DNA of 33,493 nt from a virus (IMGVR_UViG_2579779076_000013); one strand, 5' to 3'; numbered from the stretch's first letter, positions 5,032-19,149 are shown. Notes: generated by a model not told the origin, from the sequence alone. A program made the numbers and translations.

Positions 5032-7442
5032 GTCATGACGATATGAGCAACTCTAGCGGCTTTAACGAGGCCGCCGCATCATTTTCATGGAACGGCCCGA
5101 AAAAGGCCATTAACCCTTATCTGGACCCGGCGGAAGTTGCGCCGGAGTCTGCACTTTCAAACCTGATCACTCTGTATGCTGCCGATAACGAGCAGGAACA
5201 ACTGCGCCGCGAGGCACTGAGTGAGCAGGTCTGGGAGCGTTATTTCTTTAATGAATCCCGTGATCCTGTCCAGCGCGAAATGGAGCAGGATAAGCTCATT
5301 AGCCGGGCAAAGCTGGCGCATGAGCAGCAGCGTTTTAATCCAGACATGGTCATTCTGGCTGACGTCAACGCCCAGCCTTCCCATATCAGCAAGCCGCTGA
5401 TGCAACGTATTGAATACTTCAGCAGCCTGGGCAGGCCAAAGGCTTATTCCCGCTATTTGCGTGAGACGATTAAGCCATGTCTGGAACGGCTGGAGCATAT
5501 ACGCGACAGTCAGCTATCCACTTCTTTTCGCTTTATGGCGAGCCATGAAGGGCTGGACGGCCTGCTGATCCTGCCTGAAATGAGTCAGGATCAGGTGAAA
5601 CGCCTGTCCACCCTGGTAGCTGCGCATATGAGCATGTGCCTTGATGCAGCTTGTGGCGATTTGTATGCCACCGATGACGTTAAGCCAGAAGAAATCCGCA
5701 AGACATGGGAAAGGGTGGCAGCAGAAACCCTGCGACTGGATGTCATCCCACCTGCGTTTGAGCAACTCCGCCGGAAAAGAAACCGCCGTAAACCCGTGCC
5801 CTATGAACTCATTCCGGGTTCGCTAGCGCGTATGTTGTGCGCCGACTGGTGGTACCGGAAATTATGGAAGATGCGTTGCGAATGGCGGGAAGAGCAGTTG
5901 CGCGCTGTCTGCCTGGTCAGCAAAAAAGCATCTCCCTATGTCAGCTATGAAGCCGTGATGCATAAACGTGAGCAGCGCCGTAAGTCGCTGGAGTTTTTTC
6001 GTTCTCATGAACTGGTGAACGAAGACGGCGACACGCTGGATATGGAAGACGTGGTAAACGCCAGCAGCAGCAACCCTGCACATCGCCGCAATGAGATGAT
6101 GGCCTGTGTTAAAGGTCTGGAGCTTATCGCGGAAATGCGCGGTGACTGCGCCGTTTTCTACACCATCACCTGTCCGTCACGTTTCCATTCCACGCTCAAT
6201 AACGGCAGACCAAACCCAACCTGGACAAATGCGACGGTAAGACAAAGCAGCGATTATCTGGTCGGCATGTTTGCTGCATTTCGTAAGGCGATGCACAAAG
6301 CCGGGTTGCGCTGGTATGGCGTGCGGGTGGCTGAGCCGCATCATGACGGTACGGTTCACTGGCACCTGTTGTGTTTCATGCGCAAAAAAGACCGCCGTGC
6401 CATTACTGCATTGTTGTGTAAGTTTGCCATCCGTGAAGACCGCGAGGAACTGGGTAATAACACTGGTCCACGCTTTAAATCTGAGCTGATAAACCCGCGC
6501 AAAGGAACACCGACAAGCTACATCGCGAAATACATTAGTAAGAACATTGACGGGCGTGGTCTGGCTGGCGAGATCAGCAAGGAAACGGGTAAATCCCTGC
6601 GTGATAACGCTGAATACGTTAATGCCTGGGCGTCTCTGCATCGTGTTCAGCAATTCCGCTTCTTTGGTATTCCGGGGCGTCAGGCTTACCGTGAACTGCG
6701 ATTGCTGGCTGGTCAGGCGGCAAGGCAACAGGGTGACAAAAAAGCAGGTGCGCCGGTACTGGATAACCCGCGCCTTGATGCCATCCTGGCTGCTGCTGAT
6801 GCTGGTTGTTTTGCCACTTACATCATGAAGCAGGGTGGCGTACTGGTTCCCCGCAAATATCACCTCATCAGAACTGCTTATGAAATTAACGAAGAGCCGA
6901 CCGCCTATGGCGATCACGGCATTCGTATTTATGGCATCTGGTCACCCATTGCAGAGGGCAAGATCTGCACTCATGCAGTGAAGTGGAAAATGGTTCGTAA
7001 AGCCGTTGACGTTCAGGAGGCGGTAGCCGACCAGGGCGCTTGCGCCCCTTGGACTCGTGGCAATAACTGTCCCCTTGCTGAAAATTTGAACCAACAGGAG
7101 AAAGATAAATCAGCTGATGGGGACCCCAGAACGGACATTACCAGCATGGATGACAAGGAGTTGCACGATTACCTGCACAGTATGAGCAAAAAAGAGCGCC
7201 GGGAACTGGCAGCAAGGTTACGCCTGGTGAAACCGAAACGGCGTAAAGACTACAAACAGCGAATTACAGACCATCAGCGACTGCAGCTCGTGTATGAGCT
7301 GAAGTCCAGAGGATTTGATGGCAGCGAGAAAGAGGTCGATTTACTCCTTCGCGGAGGCAGTATTCCGTCAGGAGCAGGCCTGCGTATCTTCTATCGGAAC
7401 CAGCGTTTGCAGGAAGATGATCAGTGGCGGAACCTGTATTAA
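5028..7442 (+). CDS. A: replication initiation endonuclease gpA (HUH rolling-circle initiator)
   Basis: 804-aa ORF coupled to dam (ATGA overlap). HUH-type motif VHWHLLCF. Size and position match P2/186 gene A. Confidence 0.9.
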
Positions 7443-7536
7443 TTACGCGGGTTAACAATTCGTGCTCTTAATAATACCAGGCATATCAGGCTGATGAACG
7501 TAAAAAAACGTTTTACATCAGTAAGATTATTATATA

Positions 7537-7552
7537 CTGTAAATATAAACAG
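7537..7552. promoter_or_regulatory. LexA box (SOS operator) overlapping the promoter of the downstream two-gene operon
   Basis: TACTGTAAATATAAACAGTG is a perfect CTGT-N8-ACAG with an AT-rich centre. An upstream TTTACA -35-like element is present. Confidence 0.7.
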
Positions 7553-7595
7553 TGGTTATACATACAGTATTGCGTGTGGTGTCATAGGAGGAAAG

Positions 7596-7784
7596 ATGCA
7601 GGACTATTTTTTGGAGTCTTTGAAGCTCCAGCGCATTGATTTTTTTCTTAAGCTTGTAGCGGCTAGTGAGTGTAGTGATGAAGAGAAGGGGCTGGCTCTG
7701 CAGTGGGTTTCTGAATTGACTGATGAACTCATGGCAAAAATCAGAACCCACGAATACAACCGCTCAATGGATGTCATCAGCTGA
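7596..7784 (+). CDS. small SOS-controlled protein, candidate Tum-like antirepressor (62 aa)
   Basis: AGGAGG RBS 4-9 nt upstream of ATG 7596 and immediately downstream of the LexA box. The longer track ORF (7494) would contain the operator and RBS, so the shorter start is preferred. Confidence 0.45.
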   Translation: MQDYFLESLKLQRIDFFLKLVAASECSDEEKGLALQWVSELTDELMAKIRTHEYNRSMDVIS

Positions 7785-8028: not shown

Positions 8029-8163
8029 GAAACGTTGCTGGCGTCTGAACTTGCTTCTGGCGTCAGCAAGGTTGAACAACGAGCCCTTGCGAGGCGTTAG
8101 CTCTGTAGTGCATGTCTATGCCGCATGAGATCGCATGATCGTTTGAGGATCGTTTTTGCTAAG

Positions 8164-8187
8164 GCCCGCCAGAACTGGCGGGCTTTT
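8164..8187 (+). terminator. rho-independent terminator after the SOS operon
   Basis: GCCCGCCAG-aa-CTGGCGGGC stem followed by TTTT. Confidence 0.6.
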
Positions 8188-8232
8188 GCGTAGATCATGC
8201 AGGTGCATGAAAACCACTACATAAAGCGGGCA

Positions 8233-8251
8233 GGCGTGGCGGGGATACGAT
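8233..8251. other. candidate cos (cohesive end) sequence
   Basis: GGCGTGGCGGGGATACGAT resembles the 19-nt cohesive ends of P2/186 as I remember them (GGCG[A/T]GGCGGGGAAAGCA[C/T]). Lies between gene A and the portal gene as expected. Confidence 0.4.
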
Positions 8252-8311
8252 TGCGCACTGTCGTGGTTAGAGATAAGCTATCAATAAATATGCTACTGTA
8301 TAGAGGAAAAT

Positions 8312-10081
8312 ATGGCTGAACTTGCGTCACAACCAACATCTATTCAATCTATTTATAACTGGTATATTGATAACAGACTCTTTGTTAATAGGAGATATCA
8401 ACGTAAATTAGTTTGGACATTAATTGAAAAGCAAAAGCTTGTAGATTCGATTTTGAAAAAATATCCAGTACCAGCAATACTTATTGCTGAAAGAGAAGGT
8501 TCCCCTGGTACGTATGAAATAATTGATGGTTTACAGCGTCTCCACGCCATTATGTCGTTTATAGAAACTTCTTATACGACCATTGATGGTAAAATATTCA
8601 ATCTTCAATTTTTCCCAACAGCTCAAACAAGAGCAGATGAAGGTTTTTTTGAGCCTGACATACAATCCGAAGTAATTTCGCAACGAGATGTGGGAACGTT
8701 TCTTGATTATCCATTAGCTTTGTCTGTGATGCGAAATGCTACTGAAAATGAGATCAATGATGTTTTTGATAGAATTAACTCGTATGGTCACAGACTTAGC
8801 GATCAAGAAAGAAGACAGTCAGGGGTGGAAAACAGTTTTTCAACAATGGTTAGAAATATTTCCTGTTCGATTCGAGGTGATGTTTCAAGTGATATATTAC
8901 CCCTTCGTGATATGCCATCCATTAGTATCGACTTGCCTTTAACCAGGCACGGGTATTCAGTTAAGGCTGATGATGTATTCTGGGTTAAACATGGCGTTTT
9001 GCGTTCAACTGATCTAAGAGACAGTATGGATGAGCAATGTATAGCTGATATTGCTGCTTGTGTAATATTAGGTGAGCCTATTGAAAGATCAAAGGTTGCG
9101 CTTGATAGGATTTATGATCAATCTCGTCCAGAATATATTCAGCTTAACTCTGCGCTTGAGGTTTATGGAGATACTAAGTTTATTGAAGAGTTTAAGTATT
9201 GTCTCGATGAAATTATTAAAGTCTGTGAAAATGGTACTTTCATAAAATTAAGGGAGTTGATTTTCCCCGATGCAAATAATAATGCATATCCATCTGTTTT
9301 TTCGATTTTATTCTTATCTTTCTATGAGTTGATTGTCGGCGAAAATAAAAAAGTGGCTAATTATTCTGAACTAAGGAACCGAATGAATAATATTGTCGAT
9401 AGAATTAATATAGGACGAAGAGCAGGAAGCGTTGATGAACGAAGAGCAAATATCGATGCTGTAAAAGGTTTGATTGGTGTATCTTTTGTGGTTTCTGATG
9501 AACCTCTACCTATTTATGAAAACCATACCGGCATGGACATAGAGAATTATATTAGAAGGTCTGAAGTGGAATTGGCTAACTATGAGTTAAAGCAGGGGAT
9601 GTTGAACTTAAATAATTCGAGAACATTGAATCAAGATGTTGTGCACAGAATTATTAATACTATATGTGCAATAGCTAATAATGGGAAAGGGACGCTCGGA
9701 AAAATTATCATTGGTGTTGCTGATGATGACCATGATGCAGAGAGAGTAAGACAGTTAGATCGTATTGAACCAAAACGAGTTGGTTTAAAAAACGTTGTAG
9801 GTGTTTCAAGAGAAGCTAGAGCGCTCGGTATTACTAATGAAGAGTATTTAACTCGGTGGGTCAATGCTATTCAAAATTCAGAGTTATCAGAGCCACTGAA
9901 AAGTAATGTTTTGTCAAAGATAGACTATAATGATTTTTATGGATTAGGGGTCATCGTTATTACGGTACCTCCCCAACAATCGATTTCCGCGGTAGGTCAA
10001 GATATTTATTGGCGAGAAGCTGATAAAACAACCTTAGCTCATGGCTTACAAATAGCGACAATAGCTACTAGATTTAGTTAA
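8312..10081 (+). CDS. DUF262/ParB-like N-terminal domain protein with C-terminal Schlafen/AlbA_2-like domain; candidate anti-phage defence cargo
   Basis: 589-aa ORF with AGAGGA RBS. N-terminal DGQQR-type motif (YEIIDGLQRLHAI) after a basic RRYQRK segment. C-terminal motif SEVELANYELK...ICAIANNGKGTLGKIIIGVADDD resembles the AlbA_2/Schlafen signature. No HxxP/HNH (DUF1524) motif seen. Visibly AT-rich. Confidence 0.8.
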   Translation: MAELASQPTSIQSIYNWYIDNRLFVNRRYQRKLVWTLIEKQKLVDSILKKYPVPAILIAEREGSPGTYEIIDGLQRLHAIMSFIETSYTTIDGKIFNLQFFPTAQTRADEGFFEPDIQSEVISQRDVGTFLDYPLALSVMRNATENEINDVFDRINSYGHRLSDQERRQSGVENSFSTMVRNISCSIRGDVSSDILPLRDMPSISIDLPLTRHGYSVKADDVFWVKHGVLRSTDLRDSMDEQCIADIAACVILGEPIERSKVALDRIYDQSRPEYIQLNSALEVYGDTKFIEEFKYCLDEIIKVCENGTFIKLRELIFPDANNNAYPSVFSILFLSFYELIVGENKKVANYSELRNRMNNIVDRINIGRRAGSVDERRANIDAVKGLIGVSFVVSDEPLPIYENHTGMDIENYIRRSEVELANYELKQGMLNLNNSRTLNQDVVHRIINTICAIANNGKGTLGKIIIGVADDDHDAERVRQLDRIEPKRVGLKNVVGVSREARALGITNEEYLTRWVNAIQNSELSEPLKSNVLSKIDYNDFYGLGVIVITVPPQQSISAVGQDIYWREADKTTLAHGLQIATIATRFS

Positions 10082-10127
10082 AAAACAGGGTTACCTTTAA
10101 ATTTTATTAGAGGTAACCACTTAAAAA

Positions 10128-11153
10128 CTATAACTTATAGTTAGTGAAATTGATGACTTTATCATTCAACCAATAGTTAATCTCTTCAATTATTCTTTGA
10201 AGGGGTATTAATTCATTTCGAACAAATACTTTACTAGCCTTCTCCACATCCCCAAAACCCCCAACATTATTTGGCATAATCCCCATCATCTGAGGCGGTA
10301 CGCGGTGCGCAGCCATCATGTCATCACGGCTCACGTTTTTGATATTCAGAAACTCATCCTTCGCTGCGACTTCTGACAACGGGATAATCTGAAGCCCGTC
10401 CTTTTTGCCGTTAGGCGAGTACATAAACAGATTGCGGAAGTTGCCTGGACCTTTGGCGCTTTTCATCGCGTTGCGGAGGTTGTTCACATCCTCCTGATTC
10501 TGCGCGGCGTCGGTCATGTACATGATGAAGCCTGCATGGCTGCCGTTGATGTAATACTTACGGCGGAACAGCGTGGCGGATTCGTTGAGCAGGGCGGATG
10601 GAATGGCAGAAAGATAGCCGGGCAGGCCGTAGATCTCCTGGTTGATGTCCGGTTCCATCAGATGAAAAATGCTGCCTTTCGTGAACTGATACGGCTGGGT
10701 TGTCATACCGTATTGCACAAACCAGTAGGTATCCAGGTCTAACCCGCGTCGGGTGTATTTTGCCAGCGCAGGCTCAAGGGCGATAACTTCACCGAATCGG
10801 TTCGTGCGTTTCTCCAGGTAGGCGTTACCAAATACCAGATAGTCCTGCACAAAACGCGAAAAAGCCTGTTGGCTGAGCAGCGGATGAGGGATATAGGTAC
10901 TGGTCAGAATGTTGCACTTTACTGCAATCGGGGAACTGTGATGCACGGCAGCGCGGAAGGTGCGCGCCAGTCCGTCAAAGCTGACGGGAGGCTCATACCA
11001 GCGATCTGTCTGAACACATTCCACATAGTCCAGCAGTTCGCGGCGGTCAAGTACTGGAACGGGATCACCGAAGCTGAATGCTTCGGCTGAAGTCTGGTTT
11101 TTATGCTGGATCTGATTCGTCGCCGCAGCGCGGTTTTTCTTACTCTTTCCCAT
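10128..11153 (-). CDS. Q: portal protein gpQ
   Basis: 342-aa ORF at the P2 Q position; ATG overlaps the P stop (ATGA). Convergent with the cargo gene across a 46-bp hairpin-containing gap. Confidence 0.9.
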   Translation of the reverse strand: MGKSKKNRAAATNQIQHKNQTSAEAFSFGDPVPVLDRRELLDYVECVQTDRWYEPPVSFDGLARTFRAAVHHSSPIAVKCNILTSTYIPHPLLSQQAFSRFVQDYLVFGNAYLEKRTNRFGEVIALEPALAKYTRRGLDLDTYWFVQYGMTTQPYQFTKGSIFHLMEPDINQEIYGLPGYLSAIPSALLNESATLFRRKYYINGSHAGFIMYMTDAAQNQEDVNNLRNAMKSAKGPGNFRNLFMYSPNGKKDGLQIIPLSEVAAKDEFLNIKNVSRDDMMAAHRVPPQMMGIMPNNVGGFGDVEKASKVFVRNELIPLQRIIEEINYWLNDKVINFTNYKL

Positions 11154-18054: not shown

Positions 18055-18493
18055 ACTGCAGAAGGTGGACGACTGGCTGAGTGCATTATTGGCGAATCTG
18101 GAGCCAGCCGCAAGAAGCCGCATGATGCGCCAGCTGGCGCAGGAACTGCGCCGGACACAGCAGCAGAACATCAGGATGCAGCGCAATCCAGATGGCAGCA
18201 GTTATGAGCCGCGCAGGGTAACAGCACGCAGCAAAAAGGGGCGCATCAAACGTCAGATGTTTGCGAAGCTGCGCACCACAAAATACCTGAAAACTGCCGC
18301 CAGCGCCGACTCTGCCAGCGTGCAGTTTGAAGGCAAGGTGCAGCGCATTGCCCGCGTTCATCACTACGGCCTGCGTGATCGCGTCAGTCGCAAAGGACCT
18401 GAGGTCCGTTATGCAGAGCGTCGTTTGTTAGGGGGGAATGATGAAGTAGAAACTCGAACTAGGAATATCCTAGTTCGATGGCTTATAAGTTAG
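18047..18493 (+). CDS. S: tail completion / virion morphogenesis protein gpS
   Basis: 148 aa at the P2 S position. The 3' end runs into AT-rich sequence and a hairpin. Confidence 0.8.
   Translation: MAELQKVDDWLSALLANLEPAARSRMMRQLAQELRRTQQQNIRMQRNPDGSSYEPRRVTARSKKGRIKRQMFAKLRTTKYLKTAASADSASVQFEGKVQRIARVHHYGLRDRVSRKGPEVRYAERRLLGGNDEVETRTRNILVRWLIS
18454..18478. repeat. perfect 11-bp inverted repeat with 3-nt loop at the S / moron convergent junction
   Basis: TCGAACTAGGA-ata-TCCTAGTTCGA, read directly from the sequence. Confidence 0.5.
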
Positions 18494-19149
18494 CTCTTAT
18501 TTTTGGATGAGCGTAAAAGACTCATTAATTCTATGATGATTTTTTCTTGAAGTAGATTGGGGGTTTTTTCGAAACTTACATTGTGTTCACGTAATGTTTG
18601 AATGATTTTGCCGAACTCATCAGTATCACCTTGCGATAGTAAGAATGCAATTCTCTGGTTGTCATAGTCGTTGCTCATTTGCATGTTGTATTTAATGAAC
18701 ACAATAAATAACCGAAGTATATATCCAGTGAATAATATTCCAGATAAGATTAGTAAATAAGGTGCCGCGGTTTCAATGGCTTTTTCAAAGGTGCTTTTAG
18801 TATTTAGGTATGTTGAATTAATACCTGATTCATTTTTTTTGATTATCGGGTTTGAATTTTTTGAAGCGTTGAGGTTTTCTGATGCTTGTGCAAGTTTATC
18901 AGTTAACTGTTGCATGATGGTGAACTTTTCGAAAGCAGATTCTATTTGCTGAGAGCTCAATCTAAGTGAGGCAAGTGCATTGTCACGCTTATTACTTTCT
19001 GCTTTATAAAAAATATAAGTTGCAGGAATGCAGAGTACAGCAGTTAATAAAATATATAAAAATAAGAGCGTAGTAATTTTAGAGCGGCTAGCTCGTTTTT
19101 CCATTGTTTTCAATATTTCGTTATATTTTTGTTCGTCAAGAACCATCAT
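18490..19149 (-). CDS. two-transmembrane membrane protein (antisense AT-rich moron between S and V)
   Basis: ORF track 18490..19251; the internal ATG at 19149 (AAGGA upstream) is preferred because the longer form overlaps the V start. Two TM segments (ITTLLFLYILLTAVLCIPATYIFY, AAPYLLILSGILFTGYILRLFIVFI) flank a roughly 100-aa Ser/Asn/Lys-rich region. Confidence 0.6.
   Translation of the reverse strand: MMVLDEQKYNEILKTMEKRASRSKITTLLFLYILLTAVLCIPATYIFYKAESNKRDNALASLRLSSQQIESAFEKFTIMQQLTDKLAQASENLNASKNSNPIIKKNESGINSTYLNTKSTFEKAIETAAPYLLILSGILFTGYILRLFIVFIKYNMQMSNDYDNQRIAFLLSQGDTDEFGKIIQTLREHNVSFEKTPNLLQEKIIIELMSLLRSSKNKS

Follow-up and report, generated by a model that had tools for sequence, protein, structure and literature searches.

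A survey of 5,930 prokaryotic Schlafen (Slfn) proteins defined their catalytic motif as Ex4(E/D)xK and catalogued 55 architectures (pSlfn1-55), with DUF262 fusions accounting for 1.8% (Perez Taboada et al., Nat Microbiol March 2026, PMC13056530; bioRxiv July 2025, PMC12330615). Seven Enterobacterales Schlafen systems were assayed there in MG1655, each expressed from its native promoter, and EcoSlfn7, a DUF262-Slfn fusion of Escherichia coli UC4224, restricted a wide variety of phages, with plating cut most for T7 (538-fold; PMC13056530); the preprint adds T3 to the phages restricted (PMC12330615). Phage-activated cleavage of transfer RNA (tRNA) has been shown only for RorSlfn5, which on activation cuts the anticodon arm. 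In GmrSD and SspE, the DUF262 domain senses modified DNA and activates a nuclease through nucleoside triphosphatase (NTPase) activity, and an eight-helix “ParBDB” DNA-binding domain is common to NsnA, DndB, GmrSD, and SspE (PMC12065111). In P2-like phages, the gpA-gpQ region beside cos is a documented defense hotspot (Rousset et al., 2022; PMC9122126). The DNA considered here, a 33,493-nucleotide (nt) stretch from a virus (IMGVR_UViG_2579779076_000013) that is referred to as the window at its full length, is a P2/186-like prophage with a gene for a DUF262-Schlafen fusion protein between cos and the portal gene Q (Table 1). There is good reason to regard this gene, as EcoSlfn7, as a single-gene pSlfn anti-phage system, acquired horizontally as cargo in the cos-adjacent hotspot, in which a DUF262 switch would license a tRNA-cleaving Schlafen nuclease.

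Identity to the UC4224 chromosome (NZ_CP104472.1) is 100% for the gene as well as its surroundings; the 1770 nt of the gene lie there at 4519514-4521283, and its product is annotated as a “DUF262 domain-containing protein.” The chromosome has one copy, even by distant blastn, and no DUF262-Slfn gene was found on plasmids pUC4224_1 and pUC4224_2 by annotation or tblastn (best E 0.44). The strain, the architecture, and the finding of no other such gene in UC4224 leave little doubt that this is the published EcoSlfn7. The protein has the features of the DUF262-Slfn class of pSlfn proteins, namely an SLFN_AlbA_2 match above the Pfam threshold, an Ex4(E/D)xK motif, the expected fold, and the fusion to DUF262. 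The initial annotation, made from the sequence alone, had proposed a single-gene anti-phage system of an undescribed kind, outside any named defense family. The first part is borne out by the phenotype published for the UC4224 gene; the second does not hold, since DUF262-Slfn is among the 55 catalogued architectures and the UC4224 fusion was published as EcoSlfn7. The DUF262-Schlafen gene is already known as a defense gene and is not new, and the result is one of validation rather than discovery: a defense gene was predicted from raw sequence, and the prediction agrees with an experiment published independently for the gene of this strain.

That annotation had also described an AT-rich open reading frame (ORF) of 589 amino acids (aa) with a DUF262/ParB-like domain at its N-terminus, an AlbA_2/Schlafen-like domain at its C-terminus, and no DUF1524/HNH domain, all of which was confirmed. 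The ORF has exactly the extent given, and the quoted peptides are all present (YEIIDGLQRLHAI at aa 68-80, ELANYELK at aa 420-427, and GKIIIGVADDD at aa 463-473). Pfam family PF03235 (GmrSD_N) matches with 74.9 bits against a cut-off of 33.2 (E 1.2e-20), and PF04326 (SLFN_AlbA_2) with 30.9 bits against a cut-off of 25.3 (E 4.4e-7). The DUF262 motifs are QRKLVW (aa 30-35) and DGLQR (aa 72-76; nt 8525-8539). PADLOC matches were limited to aa 6-184, with NsnA of Menshen (E 8.6e-26) and PD-T4-2_A (E 6.8e-16); PHROG 26759, a family without known function, matches over the full length; and an NCBIfam search of the 589-aa protein gave nothing useful.

A PDB sequence search with the family profile returned only noise (best E 0.039), so a fold search was needed. 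The AlphaFold2 model, based on 53 homologs, has a mean predicted local distance difference test score (pLDDT) of 82.6 and a predicted template modeling score (pTM) of 0.66. Compared with the PDB by Foldseek, it matched BrxU (E 4.6e-4; 7p9k, the best full-length structural match), the AlbA_2 protein DIP2311, ParB/Noc CTPases, and SLFN5/11/12/13/14. Fold matches of the N-terminal domain were BrxU (8.5), SspE (7.9), ParB-like PadC (6.4), and a DndI-complex DUF262 protein (5.9), while those of the C-terminal domain were SAMD9, SLFN5/11/12, and DIP2311, that is, a Schlafen/AlbA_2 fold. Sequence and predicted fold agree on two domains, DUF262 followed by Schlafen, with no HNH; DUF1524/HNH is missing from the NCBIfam results and, even at E<=1, from those of Pfam. 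The helical region between the two domains is possibly, by analogy, the counterpart of the “ParBDB” domain that follows DUF262 in NsnA, GmrSD, and SspE. The domain content bears on one alternative, that the protein is a type IV restriction-like enzyme in which DUF262 recognizes the DNA of the phage, and DNA rather than tRNA is what the AlbA_2/Schlafen-like domain binds or cuts, so that the phage genome is degraded. This is unlikely, not only for want of a DUF1524/HNH domain but also because the C-terminal Ex4(E/D)xK is a ribonuclease (RNase) signature, responsible for tRNA cleavage in those Schlafens that have been characterized, bacterial (RorSlfn5) and human, and because protection is strongest against two phages with unmodified DNA, T7 and T3.

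Conservation was compared in a set of 55 close homologs and in three distant ones, which are plasmid relatives at 29-38% identity. Among the 55, the invariant N-terminal residues are N26-R-x-Y-Q-R-K-L-V-W35, D72-G-L-Q-R76, and R161-L-S-D-Q-E-R-R-Q169. The middle region has an invariant acidic block (T233/R236-D-S-x-D-E-Q242), and E418, E420, E425, K427, and G468 are invariant in the Schlafen domain, with D471 at least 90% conserved. The distant relatives keep NRxYQRKLVW, DGxQR, S238/D240/E241, E420, E/D425, K427, G468, and D471, so that both ends of the protein look catalytically or ligand-competent as far as sequence can tell. D471, in the stretch G468-V-A-D471, is probably the third acidic active-site residue, by analogy with the SLFN13 triad (E205/E210/D248). 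A second alternative would reverse the roles, toxicity coming from the ParB-like DUF262 domain, as an NTPase or nuclease effector, and the Schlafen-like domain only binding or sensing nucleic acid. The retention of E420, E/D425, K427, and D471 down to 29% identity argues for catalysis rather than binding by the latter, the published survey takes Slfn as the effector across its 55 architectures (PMC13056530), and DUF262 is the sensor in GmrSD, SspE, and Menshen (PMC12065111). Such a reversal is therefore very unlikely, and the preferred reading keeps the Schlafen domain as effector.

This allele occurs in just 3 of 5,426 complete E. coli genomes (UC4224, UC4315, and UC4316, which look closely related, with nearly equal genome sizes and gene positions), and distant blastn detects the DUF262-Slfn family at the DNA level in 42. 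The divergence between family members in the P2 slot and in a P4-like satellite (E. coli W and Ec-FL1-1X, respectively; Table 1) fits independent acquisitions. In about 30 genomes distant blastn aligned only the first 52% of the gene, and a domain swap was considered for E. coli W, but its homolog is colinear over the full length with ELANYELK intact. No homolog was found in 50,697 deposited phage genomes, even by tblastn. Full-length relatives at 30-59% identity are present in 144 plasmid records, those inspected including IncF, IncC, and Lactobacillales conjugative plasmids, and a large protein collection holds at least 120 clusters at 58-90% identity over the full length, from Enterobacterales, Burkholderiales, cyanobacteria, and a thaumarchaeon. 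A Dickeya homolog lies in a chromosomal island between toxin-antitoxin pairs. No neighboring gene is conserved among the P2-like prophages, the P4-like satellite, the Dickeya island, Leptolyngbya, and the IncF, IncC, and Lactobacillales plasmids, which marks this as a single-gene system.

These distributions also bear on whether the window gene might differ from the one assayed in the paper, or might have a non-defense role in the prophage, for example in packaging or partition. The gene does abut cos, and its identification is not anchored by the paper's protein accession; however, it is the single copy in a chromosome whose companion plasmids have none, it is absent from almost all P2-like prophages as well as from every deposited phage genome, and homologs are found on plasmids, satellites, and chromosomal islands without cos. 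A misidentification or a non-defense role thus seems highly improbable. All three alternatives are disfavored by the conservation of the RNase-type motif, the phenotype against phages with unmodified DNA, the lack of HNH, and the sporadic distribution on mobile elements.

The family is about 60% identical over its full length from E. coli to cyanobacteria, Burkholderiales, and a thaumarchaeon, which is unusually uniform for a sensor-bearing defense protein. This suggests either a very constrained sensor or a recent wide horizontal spread.

Within the prophage, the gene had been described initially as accessory cargo of the A-to-Q region, next to a cos-like sequence, with its own ribosome binding site and convergent with Q across a short hairpin, and this layout stands. 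By alignment, the cos-like sequence is the genuine prophage cos: window 8167-8256 is colinear with the circularized phage 186 junction, and the annotated 19-nt cos of 186 is identical at 16 of 19 positions (21/24 including flank). The match to P2 cosL (14/19) was discarded as proof in favor of the 186 junction, being barely above chance, with 13/19 matches occurring elsewhere in the window. Homology to 186 ends at 8256, that to 186 and 86 other P2-like phage records together breaks off at 8256-8259, and from there through the Q stop there is no match to phage 186. In P2 and 186, cos and the portal stop are only about 170 base pairs (bp) apart, including the tQ/tW terminator; judging from the alignment, the cassette here, one gene with its own hairpin, takes the place of that spacer. 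The G+C content of the gene is 0.360, compared with 0.529 for A, 0.499 for Q, 0.563 for P, and 0.522 for the remaining window, and it is the sole ORF with homologs between cos and Q. Its A-to-Q position beside cos and its variability among related prophages are those of hotspot cargo, and its presence in three E. coli genomes is not that of a core gene. The order in UC4224 is int, CI, CII, Fil, Dam, replication endonuclease A, a small ORF, a DinI-like gene, and the DUF262-Schlafen gene, followed on the opposite strand by portal and terminase genes. RefSeq also calls a pseudogene (“hypothetical protein, internal stop”) at window ~8125-8319, spanning cos and the start of the cargo gene; the call is probably spurious.

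The cargo gene and Q, whose stop is at 10128, converge on a hairpin that none of 200 shuffled sequences equaled in stability. The P2 and 186 annotations have a terminator (tQ, tW) at the equivalent position, and the hairpin is likely a bidirectional terminator in its place. Another hairpin, GC-rich and followed by TTTT (GGCCCGCCAGAACTGGCGGGCTTTTGCG), lies at window 8162-8191, 3' of the DinI-like gene and directly before cos, and is partly kept in 186. It would shield the cargo gene from early-operon read-through, in which case the gene would need its own promoter within the 60 bp after cos.

In the mechanism proposed here, the N-terminal ParB-like DUF262 domain and the helical middle region would together form a nucleoside triphosphate (NTP)-dependent sensor or switch. 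If GmrSD, BrxU, and SspE are a guide, the DUF262 module probably responds to nucleic acid of the phage or to some other general cue of infection. Once triggered, the switch would license the Schlafen nuclease at the C-terminus (active residues E420/E425/K427 and probably D471); tRNA cleavage in the anticodon arm would follow, and the resulting shutdown of translation would lower phage yield, as in the related RorSlfn5. That the effector is an RNase or tRNase is probable from the comparison with RorSlfn5 and human SLFN11/13, while the chances that DUF262 serves as sensor or switch, judged from its relatives, are about evenly balanced. The uniformity of the family across phyla and the broad phage range suggest a generic cue, and would fit a sensor that is not phage-specific. 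A more tentative and rather doubtful extension is that the DUF262 and helical module is a nucleic-acid-sensing NTP switch, through which detection of phage DNA on entry, or of an intermediate in replication or packaging, would activate the tRNase. If true, the protein would be a Schlafen triggered by DNA and would differ in mechanism from RorSlfn5, which a protein triggers. Dimerization of the ParB type, driven by NTP, could pair two single-lobe Slfn domains into a tRNA-binding cleft.

Several points weigh against this overall picture. T7 and T3, the phages best restricted, carry unmodified DNA, so the modified-DNA sensing of GmrSD and SspE is not directly transferable and the trigger must differ from DNA modification. 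The accessible part of the published text reports no catalytic mutant, tRNA-cleavage assay, or trigger for the DUF262-Slfn class, and a search of the later literature turned up no study of mechanism for DUF262-Slfn or ParB-Schlafen fusions. The possible “ParBDB” identity of the middle region is argued by analogy. The match to EcoSlfn7 was made through strain, architecture, and copy number rather than the paper's protein accession; no second DUF262-Slfn gene was found in UC4224, the chromosome having been searched at the DNA level, where a paralog below 60% DNA identity could escape. Finally, the 60 bp from cos to the ATG gave no sigma-70-like site in a promoter scan, and a weak candidate (TTAGAG-16-TATGCT, 8267-8294) was seen by eye only.

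What is added to the published account is mainly genomic: the prophage around EcoSlfn7 is 186-like, and the gene is on the Q side of cos, where a 1.87-kb cassette stands in for the cos-to-portal spacer; the P4-satellite hotspot and conjugative plasmids harbor further members of the family; and neither the ParB-like nor the Schlafen active-site motif varies within it. The trigger and the control of a Schlafen nuclease by a ParB-fold NTPase are of moderate interest, as they may bear on the ancestral regulation of human SLFN11-type tRNases.

Table 1. Features of the DUF262-Schlafen locus (window coordinates unless stated otherwise) and two homologs in other E. coli strains.
Feature	Position	Strand	Remarks
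cos cohesive-end sequence of the P2/186-like prophage (GGCGTGGCGGGGATACGAT)	8233..8251	+	left edge of cargo slot; maps to annotated 186 cos
Cargo cassette, AT-rich insert	8257..10127	+	1.87 kb; G+C 0.34-0.38, about 0.52-0.60 in flanks
Shine-Dalgarno sequence GAGG	8303..8306	+	5 nt 5' of ATG; read from sequence
DUF262-Schlafen fusion gene	8312..10081	+	ATG start, 589 aa; WP_028985442.1 of E. coli UC4224; very probably the published EcoSlfn7
ParB-like GmrSD_N/DUF262 domain	8366..8815	+	PF03235, aa 19-168; PADLOC and fold matches about aa 6-185
Helical middle region	8867..9526	+	about aa 186-405; mostly helical (AlphaFold2 model); without Pfam family
Schlafen catalytic motif Ex4ExK	9569..9592	+	E420-L-A-N-Y-E425-L-K427; fits published Ex4(E/D)xK
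SLFN_AlbA_2 (Schlafen nuclease-like) domain	9578..10030	+	PF04326, aa 423-573; includes G468-V-A-D471
Hairpin between convergent stops of cargo gene and portal gene Q	10087..10121	.	-16 kcal/mol, z = -3.85
E. coli W homolog	6001-7782 of extracted locus		60% identity; same cos-to-Q slot, P2-like prophage
E. coli Ec-FL1-1X homolog	6001-7767 of extracted locus		69% identity; psu-int hotspot, P4-like satellite

Elsewhere in the window, an AT-rich ORF of 219 aa (G+C about 0.34; 18493-19149, - strand) lies between the virion-morphogenesis (S-like) gene and the baseplate gene V, on the strand opposite to its neighbors, and is cargo-like. In Pfam it has a sub-threshold match to DUF3112 only (21.4 bits, cut-off 23.3), and it has no PADLOC match; it may mark a further accessory or moron slot of the prophage. 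The stretch 1001-1500, between the integrase and CI repressor genes, has low G+C (0.354) and contains a small gene for a “YdcA family protein” (~1221-1412).

Compared with described systems, the window gene shows no detectable difference from EcoSlfn7: both are single genes of the same strain and the same architecture. In the paper EcoSlfn7 is active from its native promoter, and neither the prophage and cos context nor the mechanism is described there. RorSlfn5 of Raoultella ornithinolytica shares the Slfn nuclease domain, the Ex4(E/D)xK motif, and single-gene phage defense, but there the Slfn domain is N-terminal, a C-terminal immunoglobulin (Ig)-like sensor binds the T5 tail assembly chaperone, and the range is limited to T5, whereas the window protein has Slfn at its C-terminus, pairs it with the ParB-like DUF262 and a helical domain, and acts on a broad range. 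The human SLFN11/12/13 and SAMD9, which are antiviral tRNA nucleases, carry a pair of Slfn lobes together with a helicase or other domains, in contrast to the single lobe here (PMC13056530), and share 8-19% sequence identity with the window protein.

On the DUF262 side, GmrSD, BrxU, and SspE, of the DUF262-DUF1524 type IV restriction family, are similar in being single polypeptides of about 580 aa with an N-terminal DUF262 domain carrying QRxxxW and DGxQR, followed by a helical region. They end, however, in a DUF1524 HNH deoxyribonuclease domain where the window protein has a Schlafen domain of the RNase type, which places it outside that group. Menshen NsnA and PD-T4-2_A, which belong to multi-gene systems, are the best PADLOC matches, for the DUF262 domain only. 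In Menshen, NsnA is encoded in an operon with the ABC-ATPase NsnB and the effector NsnC (PMC12065111), while in the window gene the effector is fused in cis; no NsnB, NsnC, or other partner gene is adjacent, the neighbors being cos and the portal gene. The P2 genes old and tin are unrelated to the window protein but are likewise prophage-encoded, exclude other phages, and occupy the same cos-adjacent A-to-Q hotspot, on the A side of cos in P2 and on the Q side here.
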